In this document: in pieces, positions 8,715 through 31,920 of the stretch
Layout: each line of letters opens with the position of its first letter
Numbering within the stretch: position 1 is the first letter of the stretch
Assembly (NCBI GenBank): GCA_036630325.1
Contig: CP142730.1
Location: 62,001-126,000 of the forward strand
From: Vairimorpha necatrix
Taxonomy: Eukaryota
Length of the DNA: 64,000 nucleotides
Direction of reading: 5' to 3'
Notes under the pieces: generated by a model
What the model was told of the DNA's origin: nothing
The model's input: only the letters and a program-made list of their open reading frames with translations
Database searches by the model: none
Translations under genes and position numbers: made by a program

Positions 8715-8752
8715 TGTTAACCATTTATTTATTAAGGGTTCTAAACCCTACA
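8715..8752 (-). repeat. E1 3' LTR (38 bp)
   Basis: Minus strand TGTAGGGTTTAGAACCCTTAATAAATAAATGGTTAACA, identical to 11751-11788 and preceded by the PPT. Confidence 0.95.
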
Positions 8753-11700
8753 TCCCCCCTCCAGACGGGTAGTCTCTCCATCTTCTAAACAACTCTTCCT
8801 TATCTCTTTCAAATCATAATGCCTCTTTTTAACAATTTTACCATCCAGTAGTCTCACAATATATGAATCATTTTCACTTATAGCTACGATCCTTCCGCGA
8901 CCCGTGAATCTTCCCTTGTCTGTTTTCGCACGTGTACCTAAATTTTCTCTCCTAGCGATTCTTACCTCTTGGCCTACTGTAAATGTCTCTCTGTGTCTTC
9001 TCTTGAACCGACCAGCATATTTTCCATTTTCATCATTTTCAATTATAACTTCAGCAGTTTGATCTCTCCACGCTTCCATCGGCGTACATTTTATTGCTGT
9101 ATGTAGTGTATTATTATATCCTTTGATTGCTCTTTCTATCTTTTCAGAAATATTCCCATCATTTTGCTTTATCAATGTCTCTCTTATAGTTCTGATGCAT
9201 CTCTCGATTCTACCATTACTCCTATGAGCTTCTAAGCCCACTTTCCTATGTTTAATATCATTAATACTACACTATTCTTTAAATCTATTACTTACAAACT
9301 CTTTTCCGTTGTCTGTCACATATTCCTCTGGAAATCCATCTTCCCTTATCCACTTTTGTAATACCTCTATAACTTCACTACTCTCTTTACATCTCAAATT
9401 CGAACCCCACAACCTTCTAGTAAAGTAATCAATACCCAGTAACACATACCTATTCTCTCCACCTATGTCCATTAAATCCAACGCCACTTTCTCCAATTTC
9501 TTTCTAGTTACTACGAAATCACATCCTCCTGTGTTTTTCCTATTGTTAATCCCACATATTTCACAATTCTTAATTACCTTATTAATATGATCTTTCATAC
9601 CAGGCCAATACCATCTTTGTTTAATGTTATAATAAGTGCCTTTGACACCTCTATGGTTTAACTCCTCATGTACTCTTGTTATTTAATGTTCTCTACTATC
9701 TAGGCTCAATATCTCTTTCACCTCACCTGTGGAAAATTCCCAATACTGTTTACCGTCCTTTTCTTTAATATGTTTCTGCATTTTCCCACAATTTGTTTTT
9801 CGATCACTTCTTTTCTCTTGTTGTCCTTTTCTTTTTGTTCATCCGAAACTTCTACCTGATCATACTGCCTGCTTAACGCATCTGCATCTGTCATCAACTC
9901 CCCTTTCACATACTCTATTGTAAAGTCAAACTCTTGTATCTGTTCTACCCATCTGTTTATTCTGTTATTATTGAAGTATGGCTTATTTCTGATCTCTGCT
10001 AATGCTTTATGATCCGTCATCAAATGAAATTTCCTTCCTCTCAAATCACTTTCAAACTTCTTTATTCCAAAAAACACCGCCAACATCTCCTTCTCACTTA
10101 TCGTATATCTTCGCTCGGTAGGAGTCAACATTTTCGATGCCCATTGTATCGGAATCCACTCACCCTCTTTATTTTCTTGAGATAGAATTGCTCCGATCCC
10201 CGTATCACACGCATCAGTTCTTACTCTAAATAGCTTTTTTCCGTCCGGAATCTTCAACTTTTTCATATCTCTCAAACCTTGCTTCATATCCTCAAAAGCT
10301 CTTTCCATATCCTCCGTCCAATTCCACTTAACATCTTTCTTTAAAGCCTCAGTAAGCCTTACTGTTCTATACGCATAGTTGGGAATAAAGTCTCTAAACC
10401 AACCAGTTAGTCCTAAAAATCTTCTTAACTCTCTAACATTCTCAGGTTTTCTATATTCCAATGTCTCCTGCTTTTTAATCTCATTCGGTCCCATGACCTC
10501 CCCATTAATTGTTACTCCCAGCAACATCACCTCATCTTTTTTGTATTGTATCTTTGTTTGGTTTATTCTCAACCCACACTCTTTAAACTTTTTAATTACC
10601 CTCTCTAGTAACTCGTCATGCACTCTTACGTCTTTACCATGAATAACTATATCATCCATATATACTTCCACGCCTTTACCTCTGAATTCATCTAAAACTC
10701 TGTTCATTACTCTCTGCATTATATGAGGCGAATTCTTAAACCCCATAACCATACTATTCCATTCGTATACTCGACCATTCACTTCAAATGCTGTTTTGTG
10801 CTTATGGTGCTCCTCAATCTCAATATGATAAAACCCTTCTTTTAAGTCGATAACCGTAAATACTTTTGACCCCTGTGTGGCTCTCATAATATCCTTAATT
10901 AACGGTAGTGAGTACGGGTCCTTGTCAACCAAATCGTTTAACGCCATCAAATTGCTTACCAATCTTACGTCCCCATTTGGTTTTTCAAGTGCTCTTATTG
11001 GACTCCTCCACTCACTTTTGGAACGTCTTATAACCCCTCTATTTTCCAACTTATTCAAGTACTCCTCAAATTTCACCCTAAGGTAGTATGGCACATTCTG
11101 CCCTCTTTTCACAACCTTTTCACCTTGCTTAGTATTTATTGGACACTTCTCTCCTGTGAGATATTTTATCTTTTCTTCTGATTCTTTAAAAACTTCCGGA
11201 TACTTTTCAATTAAATTTTCTAACTTATTTACTGTTTTACATCTTTTCCCTTCATTGTTGATAATTGGTTCTTTCTGTAAAACTTGTTCCTTTTTAATTT
11301 TATATTTTTCCCTACCAGCTACACTTTCATGACATTCTCTAGCGTAATGCCCTTCTTTCTTACATATAAAACATTTTGTAGTTTCTCTGATTTCTCTTCT
11401 TTTCCTATACATCCTAAGATTTTCTTTTCTTTCTTCCCTAAACTCTTTCAACACTTTATCCATAATCTCTTTAATCATTTCTTGTCTTTCTTCTGACTCT
11501 CTCTCAAATTCTGCTCCTTTTTGTAAGCCTTTATAAATTTCCTCCCAACTGCTCCTTCCGTCACAAAAATTTTCAAAAATATAATCCTGCAAGTTCGCAG
11601 ATGCCAAATCCATAACATCTTTCCACTCAACTTTCTCAACTTTCAATATTAACTTTAGTCTCTTATCTATCCTAATTGCCTCTTTCTCTAATGTTCTAGC

Positions 11701-31500: not shown

Positions 31501-31920
31501 TCACAATAAAAACATCTCATTGTCCTCAAATACCGTTTCCACGCTCTATCTCCTCTGTATATATTTCTTTTGTCAATTTCTTTGTGACCTCTTCAATCAT
31601 TCTAAATCTCTCTTCTCCATCTTCATAATCTTTTACAATCTCTTTTAGTCGTATTCCTATCATGTCATGATGATTCTCTAAACTTATATTCATAACTATA
31701 AAATTTTTCAGCTCCAAACTTCCCTTTTCAAAAATAATTTTCTTCAAATCTTCATTGCTTCTACACTCAATAACTTTGATCTCATACATAATAATCTTAT
31801 ATTCTTGCAATAGTTTTCTGGCCTCTTGACCACAGCCAACACTTGTTATCTCACGATTTGGTATCGCCCCCATGTATTTATTCTCCATAATGGGGTTCGC
31901 AAATATAAGAATATATAACA
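28519..31920 (-). mobile_element. Ty3/gypsy LTR retrotransposon E3, full length (3172 bp plus a 230-bp nested insertion), 48-bp LTRs, no protease
   Basis: LTRs at 28519-28566 and 31873-31920 (46/48 identical, TG...CA). Perfect TSD TATGA at 28514-28518 and 31921-31925. PBS TGGGGGCGATACC and PPT GGAGGGGGGA. Gag CCHC (CFYCERLGHKSNIC), RT YMDD, RNase H and integrase in frameshifted ORFs 31526..31921, 30090..31529, 29467..30225 and 28670..29269. Confidence 0.96.
29255..29479 (-). mobile_element. 225-bp solo-LTR-like (or MITE-like) insertion in the E3 integrase
   Basis: Flanked by the 5-bp TSD ACGAC (29250-29254, 29480-29484). Ends TGTGGTATCC...GGATATCATA form an 8/10 inverted match. AATAAA on the minus strand. 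Removing it restores integrase KFVLVVIDYYTR. Confidence 0.85.

Follow-up and report, generated by a model that had tools for sequence, protein, structure and literature searches.

The 64,000-nucleotide stretch of Vairimorpha necatrix contig CP142730.1 analysed here (positions 62,001 to 126,000 of the contig, hereafter the window) contains three retrotransposons, E1, E2 and E3, whose long terminal repeats (LTRs) are 38, 38 and 48 bp long, well under the 100 bp or more that is usual. It is probable that they are dead copies from three families of a Ty3/gypsy-derived microsporidian lineage, with elements of 3.1–3.4 kb and true LTRs of 38–49 bp, in which the miniature LTR serves as a host-style gene end and gene start and supports a normal LTR-retrotransposon cycle through a very short R (repeat) region. 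The existence and outline of the elements had been proposed from the letters of the window (the original prediction). Going beyond it, we find that the copies are dead, that a protease is absent, and that the open reading frame (ORF) has its start inside the 5' LTR or at its edge, with the E1 frame ending inside the 3' LTR.

Element boundaries and terminal repeats

All three elements lie on the minus strand, and positions within their LTRs are counted in the sense orientation. E1 occupies 8715–11788, with 38-bp repeats at 8715–8752 (3' LTR) and 11751–11788 (5' LTR) that are identical at 38/38 positions. The 38-bp repeats of E2 (13074–16156) are at 13074–13111 (3' LTR) and 16119–16156 (5' LTR) and match at 32/38 positions, the inner end of the 5' copy being mutated to TA in place of CA. 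E3 (28519–31920) has 48-bp repeats at 28519–28566 (3' LTR) and 31873–31920 (5' LTR), identical at 46/48 positions. The original prediction had given the same coordinates, repeat lengths, TG..CA ends and mutated E2 terminus, and all of these hold. Exact direct repeats of at least 24 nucleotides (nt) at a spacing of 2–6 kb occur just twice in the window, in E1 and E3, and no such pair appeared in 100 second-order Markov simulations of the window. The E1 repeat, with up to three mismatches allowed, has two occurrences in the window compared with none in 100 shuffles, and by the same search the window holds no solo LTR.

Read in the sense direction, each element consists of a target-site duplication (TSD), a TGT..ACA repeat, a TGG-starting primer site, the ORF, a purine tract, the second repeat and the second TSD copy. 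The TSDs are 5 bp long and stand directly outside the repeats, as had been predicted. They are perfect in E1 (TTTAA on the plus strand, at 8710–8714 beside the 3' LTR and at 11789–11793) and in E3 (TATGA at 28514–28518 and 31921–31925), and agree at 4/5 positions in E2 (TTTTA at 13069–13073, ATTTA at 16157–16161); the chance of a 5/5 match between flanking pentamers is 0.0025 at the base composition of the window. The primer site is the same 14 nt, TGGCGAACACAAGG, in E1 (11737–11750) and E2 (16105–16118), and is TGGGGGCGATACCAAA in E3 (31857–31872), where it opens with TGGGGGCGATACC. Together with the last A of the LTR it spells the codons M A N T R in E1 and M G A I P in E3. At the other end, the polypurine tract immediately before the 3' LTR is GGAGGGGGGA in E1 (8753–8762) and E3, and AAGGAGGGAA in E2 (13112–13121). 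The predicted TGG-starting site inside the 5' repeat and purine tract before the 3' repeat are thus seen in all three elements, and a TGG-starting sequence abuts the LTR in 4/4 complete elements when a metagenomic relative, L003, is included.

Since these landmarks abut the repeats exactly, the repeats are complete LTRs and not remnants. Identity between the two ends of an element, moreover, collapses right outside the repeats, so that there is no longer, diverged LTR around them. We conclude that the 38–48-bp repeats are true, complete LTRs, and the claim that their shortness does not result from truncation is supported.

Two further stretches inside the elements are conserved. A motif of 14–15 nt lies directly upstream of the purine tract, at 8763–8776 in E1 (GAGACTACCCGTCT), at 28577–28591 in E3 (GAGACTAACCGTCTT; tract and motif together span 28567–28591), at ~3639–3652 in L003 and at ~3198–3212 in another metagenomic relative, L004. 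It is kept at the nucleotide level in these four elements whatever the reading frame, holds a short AGAC..GTCT inverted repeat, and accounts for the peptide tails ..RLEGG.. and ..RLPSGGG.. of some relatives. It looks like a cis element, which may extend the plus-strand primer or act as some other signal. The second stretch, ~40–60 nt past the primer site in all three families (11680–11728, 16048–16096 and 31802–31850; ..GTGGTCAAGAGGCCAG.. in sense), encodes G-Q-E-A-R, of which GQE is near-invariant in an alignment of 19 relatives (A1). No consistent RNA duplex between the region after the primer site and that before the purine tract is found across E1, E2, E3 and L003.

Coding content and state of the copies

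The Pfam domains of E1 and E3 follow the gypsy order zf-CCHC, RVT_1, RT_RNaseH, Integrase_H2C2 and rve, the zf-CCHC match (E1 residues 129–143, E 0.0011) lying just below the Pfam cut-off. The reverse transcriptase (RT) and RNase H (RH) part of a structural model of a relative matches the RTs of cauliflower mosaic virus, murine leukaemia virus and Ty3 at E 1e-30 to 1e-35, with 26–28% identity to the Ty3 chains 4ol8_A and 4ol8_B, and the non-microsporidian sequence matches of the E1 ORF carry the names 17.6, Tf2 and K02A2.6-like. Domain order and model both support the original assignment to Ty3/gypsy.

The least decayed copy is E1. Its 680-residue ORF (9718–11760, minus strand) begins at an ATG within the 5' LTR and encodes a Gag-like part with a CCHC knuckle, RT and RNase H. 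A frameshift then separates it from the integrase (IN) frame (8741–9838, minus strand; Integrase_H2C2 and rve), which is interrupted by two in-frame stops at 9272–9274 and 9683–9685. From its start within the 5' LTR the E1 frame passes through the primer site, and it takes in the pre-tract motif and the purine tract (8753–8776, minus strand) before it ends at a TAG at nt 10–12 of the 3' LTR. The internal region of E3 (28592–31856, minus strand) carries Gag(CCHC)-RT, RH-IN(H2C2) and the IN core in three or more frames with several frameshifts, and its integrase frame stops at 28584–28586, within the pre-tract motif and 7 nt before the purine tract. E2 is the most decayed, its internal Gag-RT-RH-IN region (13112–16104, minus strand) being broken into many short frames. 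The order of decay, E1, E3, E2, is also the order of LTR divergence. E3 is ~330 bp longer than E1, the extra length lying in the linker between Gag and RT. Nucleotide identity in RT-RH is only ~66% among the three, which therefore represent three families; despite this, the LTRs of E1 and E2 are of equal length and similar sequence.

Contigs of the public runs X1–X3 have the sense codons TGG and GAA at the positions of the two E1 stops, and in run X2 contigs of the E1 family have a depth of ~60–65 compared with 2–9 for the flanks, contig depth being a rough guide. These two observations imply that less damaged copies exist elsewhere. Other insertions have the same ends as E1: the E1-family contigs of X2 break off within the LTRs, and contigs that carry foreign flanks diverge 7–9 nt outside the LTR ends.

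The flanks of E1 at 8000–8480 and 12414–12636 differ by ~5% in X1 and X2 contigs, and parts of the E1 interior are identical there. This fits either the four pseudo-haplotypes of V. necatrix, given as 96% identical in the passage of the genome paper that describes them (PMC10759460), or recent activity of the element.

The LTR resembles a host gene end and gene start

Among the host genes of the window, CCC occurs no more than ~15 nt before the ATG in 12 of the 18 non-element ORFs of at least 180 residues, and AATAAA-like words follow many of the host stop codons. These features agree with a published description of E. cuniculi, in which the relevant passages report that 5' untranslated regions are shorter than 7 nt, that a CCC-like motif precedes the ATG and that an AAUAAA signal is present (PMC2803860).

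The same words are packed into the LTRs. In the 38-bp E1 LTR, CCC is at nt 15–17, two AATAAA words span 20–29 (20–25 and 24–29) and ATG is at 29–31. In E3, CCCC at 26–29 precedes ATG at 33–35 and AATAAA at 39–44. L003 has AATAAA at 12–17, CCC at 21–23 and ATG at 34, and in L004 CCC stands directly before ATG with AATAAA upstream of it. Every LTR inspected thus has CCC 0–12 nt before an ATG, in the arrangement of the host genes, as well as AATAAA, and the distance from CCC to the end of the LTR is 16–21 nt in E1, E3, L003 and L004.

A side observation concerns the host genes themselves. A T-rich run followed by CCC 0–10 nt before the start codon is seen for most host genes between 33950 and 63072 (for example at 35764, 36692, 40862, 45738, 55771 and 58111), and this pattern could help to correct start-codon calls.

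The short LTR in relatives

The E1 ORF has 112 relatives at E ≤0.001. Those with names come from microsporidia (Nosema granulosis, Vairimorpha, Pseudoloma and Enteropsectra), except for a few contigs of metagenome-assembled genomes labelled as bacteria and distant arthropod, plant and fungal matches at the bottom of the list; no relatives were found on viral contigs. The relatives are single-ORF polyproteins of ~1000 residues. RVT_1, RT_RNaseH, Integrase_H2C2 and rve are present, in this order, in 19/19 members of alignment A1, and the CCHC knuckle is recognised in 12 of these 19 by Pfam and, as a C..C....H....C pattern, in 21 of 24 relatives by script.

Four loci on metagenome contigs, L001–L004, carry relatives. 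The complete one, L003, is 3163 bp long and repeats the layout of the window elements, with a 39-bp TGT..ACA LTR (38/39 identical), a TSD of TTATA/TTATA, a primer site beginning TGGCACCC and a purine tract ending GGCGGGGA. L004 is without its 5' end; its purine tract, GGGCGGGGA, is followed by a 49-nt TGT..ACA unit that holds AATAAA, CCC and ATG. L001 and L002 belong to one truncated or nested element. A second element is present in inverted orientation on L001, where its 5' end (~1040–1095; ..TTTCACA followed by TGGCACCCGATG as read in that element's sense) abuts the truncated 5' end of the main element; this is an insertion of the nested or head-to-head kind on a microsporidian contig of metagenomic origin.

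The protein sequences carry a trace of the LTR boundary. An LTR that ends in CA and a primer site that starts with TGG always spell ATG at their junction, and in many elements an in-frame ATG also lies within the LTR. E1 starts M V N M A N T R, in which M A N T R comes from the junction ATG and primer site together, and Nosema granulosis and other relatives start MANTR; E3 starts MENKYMGAIP and its relative P0016 MENKYMGATP. Among 25 fetched relatives, 19 have an MA or MG start, either at residue 1 or 3–7 residues after an upstream M, one more has the junction signature further in, and five are without it. As the polyprotein opens at the junction ATG in most relatives, the primer site is read as its first codons. 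In addition, 13 full-length relatives of 996–1031 residues lie on contigs of just 3035–3159 nt, with 25–100 nt beyond the ORF, and each such contig is probably a whole element with collapsed repeats. The original prediction had proposed a miniaturised-LTR lineage, and L003, the protein ends and the short contigs all bear it out, supporting the view that the short LTR would be a lineage trait across a large microsporidian clade.

Absence of a protease

Aspartic-protease families match none of the 19 aligned relatives and none of four further compact relatives. Five of five more distant relatives give weak protease matches (E 5e-5 to 0.04) at the expected place. The linker between the CCHC knuckle and RT, measured in 18 of the 19 A1 members and in P0043 (P0004 was missed by the RT pattern of the script), is 51–129 residues long and contains no active-site motif except for one stray D[ST]G match. 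In the AlphaFold model of P0004 (mean predicted local distance difference test score, pLDDT, 75.8) only helices, the knuckle and a disordered stretch at 157–192 precede RT, with no beta-rich domain. We conclude that there is no protease domain in the compact clade.

The same model shows three short helices and one helix of ~68 residues between residues 14 and 136, ahead of the CCHC knuckle. At ~135 residues, the modelled Gag-like part falls far short of the size of a capsid protein with two domains, and it may form a coiled coil. One relative, P0058, on a 3432-nt contig, keeps a protease-like domain together with the same N-terminal junction signature; judging from this one protein, LTR shrinkage may predate loss of the protease.

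Proposed cycle and alternative explanations

In the cycle that we propose, the ~40-nt LTR would join a gene end of the host type directly to a gene start. The RNA would start a few nucleotides downstream of the 5'-LTR CCC, and its cleavage, following AATAAA, would fall at the 3' LTR end or shortly past it. U3 (the unique 3' region) would then be ~20–30 nt long and R plus U5 (the unique 5' region) ~10–25 nt, with U5 possibly zero, so that on the sequence evidence all three would lie inside the repeat. A tRNA would prime at the primer site, and a very short strong-stop DNA would jump by way of the miniature R. Self-priming is the mode of Tf1; no complement of the primer site is seen in the LTRs here, as judged by eye only. 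The purine tract would prime the plus strand, and integrase would join the TGT..ACA ends with a 5-bp stagger. The Gag-RT-IN fusion would function uncleaved, or be cut by a host protease or one acting in trans.

A different account accepts the boundaries but denies the repeat a promoter of its own. RNA would arise in flanking host DNA, or at an internal promoter located at nt 1 of the LTR, and the whole repeat would be R (or R plus U5), used for strand transfer and integration only. The distance from AATAAA to the end of the LTR, 4–29 nt across E1, E3, L003 and L004, is not constant, which this account would accommodate, as it would the read-through and loosely processed transcripts of E. cuniculi described in passages of PMC2803860. 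However, CCC followed by ATG within 0–12 nt in every LTR inspected, as in 12/18 host genes, and the conserved spacing of CCC from the LTR end (16–21 nt) point to a start inside the LTR, which is also needed where an in-frame ATG within the LTR opens the ORF, as in E1, E3 and many relatives. Flanking promoters, furthermore, would not restore a complete 5' LTR on each new copy. We therefore regard a repeat without its own promoter as unlikely.

Two other accounts would remove the short LTR altogether. The repeats might be remnants of longer LTRs, or intact relatives might have long LTRs and only decayed copies short ones, and it is true that all three window copies are degraded and that the E2 repeats have diverged to 32/38. 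Yet TSD, primer site and purine tract border the repeats without a gap in 3/3 elements and in L003, end-to-end similarity stops at the repeat edges, the E1 ORF enters the LTR at both ends, E1 and E2 share LTR length and similar sequence although they belong to different families, and intact relatives of ~1000 residues lie on contigs with only 25–100 nt beyond the ORF; erosion of longer LTRs is thus very improbable. That the repeats are not LTRs at all, but long duplications or microhomologies left by another insertion route, for example one like that of long interspersed nuclear elements or DIRS elements, is suggested by their unusual shortness and by nothing else. Copies of one repeat sequence are found at independent sites whose flanks differ (E1 compared with E2, and the contigs with foreign flanks), a separate 5-bp duplication stands outside the repeats, and the elements encode a DDE integrase with an H2C2 finger, with no tyrosine recombinase or apurinic/apyrimidinic endonuclease. 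We give this explanation practically no credence.

Several points nevertheless weigh against working miniature LTRs as the explanation for E1–E3. All three are dead copies, so that activity of these loci is excluded, and activity of their families is indicated only indirectly, by high relative depth and by the sense codons in other runs. The placement of AATAAA varies: it precedes CCC in L003 and L004, has CCC and ATG on either side in E1 and follows ATG in E3. Its role as a 3'-end signal is therefore not uniform. Neither of the two tRNA calls in the window matches the primer sites. Among contigs of X1–X4 over 8000–17000 none joins across E1 or E2, so that no empty-site allele is seen; coming from contigs only, this result proves nothing. 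Outside the window, L003 is the one complete relative inspected at the DNA level. Finally, we know of no precedent for an uncleaved Gag-Pol among autonomous gypsy-type elements.

Comparison with known elements

Ty3 of Saccharomyces cerevisiae shares with E1–E3 the RT-RNaseH-IN order, a CCHC Gag, TG..CA ends, a 5-bp TSD and a putative TGG-starting primer site next to the 5' LTR; its ends are TGT..ACA and its integration stagger is 5 bp. Ty3 is, however, ~5.4 kb long, with LTRs of ~340 bp, separate GAG3 and POL3 frames and a protease, and inserts at the start sites of RNA polymerase III (Pol III) genes, whereas the elements described here have a length of 3.1–3.4 kb, LTRs of 38–48 bp, one ORF and no protease. 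Nor do E1–E3 adjoin a 5S or tRNA gene of the window; the closest such gene is ~4 kb away. The 5S rRNA gene (643–761, minus strand; Rfam 93.9 bits) lies ~8 kb from E1, and there is no sign of Ty3-like insertion beside Pol III genes.

TRIM and SMART elements have LTRs of roughly 100–250 bp and encode nothing; unlike these and LARD elements, those of the window encode Gag, RT, RNase H and IN. Some retroviruses have an R of about a dozen nucleotides, and minus-strand transfer through such very short terminal homology is what the proposed cycle requires. Their U3 and U5, in contrast, measure tens to hundreds of nucleotides and their LTR several hundred base pairs, where here the whole LTR is 38–49 nt. 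TARE1 of tomato, whose 194-bp LTRs are called 'very short' in the relevant passage (PMC3701649), has LTRs about 4–5 times longer than those described here. Woot-like elements of mosquitoes are credited with 'unusually short LTRs' in a passage that gives no length (PMC3286476).

Within the microsporidia, the Ty3/gypsy groups of Parisot 2014 (PMC4202319), as presented in the main text, have Gag and Pol in a single polyprotein, as in the relatives of E1, and the same text cites, for one of these elements, a putative promoter that contains a microsporidian regulation signal. The LTR passages covered in the main text of that paper give no LTR length, and the word 'protease' occurs 0 times in this main text. 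For the Nbr elements of Nosema bombycis (Xu et al. 2006), compared here through a citing paper, nearly all are stated to have Gag, protease, RT, RNase H and integrase (PMC2474625), whereas the clade described here is without a protease. In the passage of the V. necatrix genome paper that bears on such genes they are named reverse transcriptase or endonuclease, and the word 'LTR' is absent from the text covered (PMC10759460). The LTR-related passages of PMC10759460, PMC13174016, PMC12449221, PMC3614468, PMC3486916 and PMC2474625 mention no LTR length, primer site, purine tract or missing protease. In the searchable literature we found no description of an LTR shorter than 194 bp and no report of short LTRs in microsporidia. 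A microsporidian gypsy-type family with a single polyprotein is thus already known, and the short-LTR structure is undescribed in searchable text; a prior record in supplements or repeat libraries, which lay outside this scope, is possible.

Other features of the window

The remaining ORFs of the window include ordinary eukaryotic genes, for a VTC-domain protein, eRF3, an ABC-F protein and an amino-acid transporter; the eRF3 is closest to that of Vairimorpha bombi (74%), then Nosema granulosis (60%). An ORF of 732 residues at 16617–18815 (plus strand), with no Pfam match and no CCC before its ATG, lies between E2 and a 9-kb stretch without long ORFs. The tRNA-Met called by ARAGORN at 20096–20168 (plus strand) scores below the Rfam tRNA gathering threshold, and this tRNA may be degenerate or a false call.

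The right flank of E2 (16127–16427) has a summed contig depth of ~51,000 in run X1, compared with hundreds elsewhere. It has no repeat within the window and no Rfam match, and may be a high-copy repeat or sequence of another organism in that run. X1 and X2 contigs join this flank to other letters exactly at 16156/16157. These joins (from 16157) were considered as a simple empty site and rejected, as the joined letters do not match the E2 left flank.

Implications

We tentatively suggest, with slightly less than even confidence, that E1–E3 belong to a widespread microsporidian lineage of the smallest autonomous LTR retrotransposons known (~3.0–3.4 kb). Its ~40-nt LTR would be a combined terminator and promoter with an R of at most ~20 nt and perhaps no U5; the primer site would double as the first codons of an ORF that can span from LTR to LTR, and the protease would have been lost. 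The structure would be undescribed, its members annotated as stray 'reverse transcriptase' or 'endonuclease' genes because LTR finders need 100 bp. The LTRs of E1, E2, E3 and L003 (38, 38, 48 and 39 bp) do fall below the operational threshold of ~100 bp that the original prediction attributed to such programs, and this figure is supported by the benchmark section of the LTR_retriever preprint, in which LTRharvest is run at -minlenltr 100 (bioRxiv 10.1101/137141). Programs set to this minimum miss these elements, and repeat and gene counts in microsporidia are likely to be skewed as a result.

If the proposal is correct, the lower bound for a working LTR would drop to ~40 nt, within which would fit a core promoter and poly(A) signal, both integrase end sites and the homology needed in the first strand jump. 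The lower bound for autonomous LTR elements would likewise drop, to ~3.1 kb with no protease. The proposal makes testable both the minimal R for minus-strand transfer and gypsy-type replication without cleavage of Gag-Pol. These elements would represent a parasite of a compact genome that has adopted the miniature gene signals of its own host.

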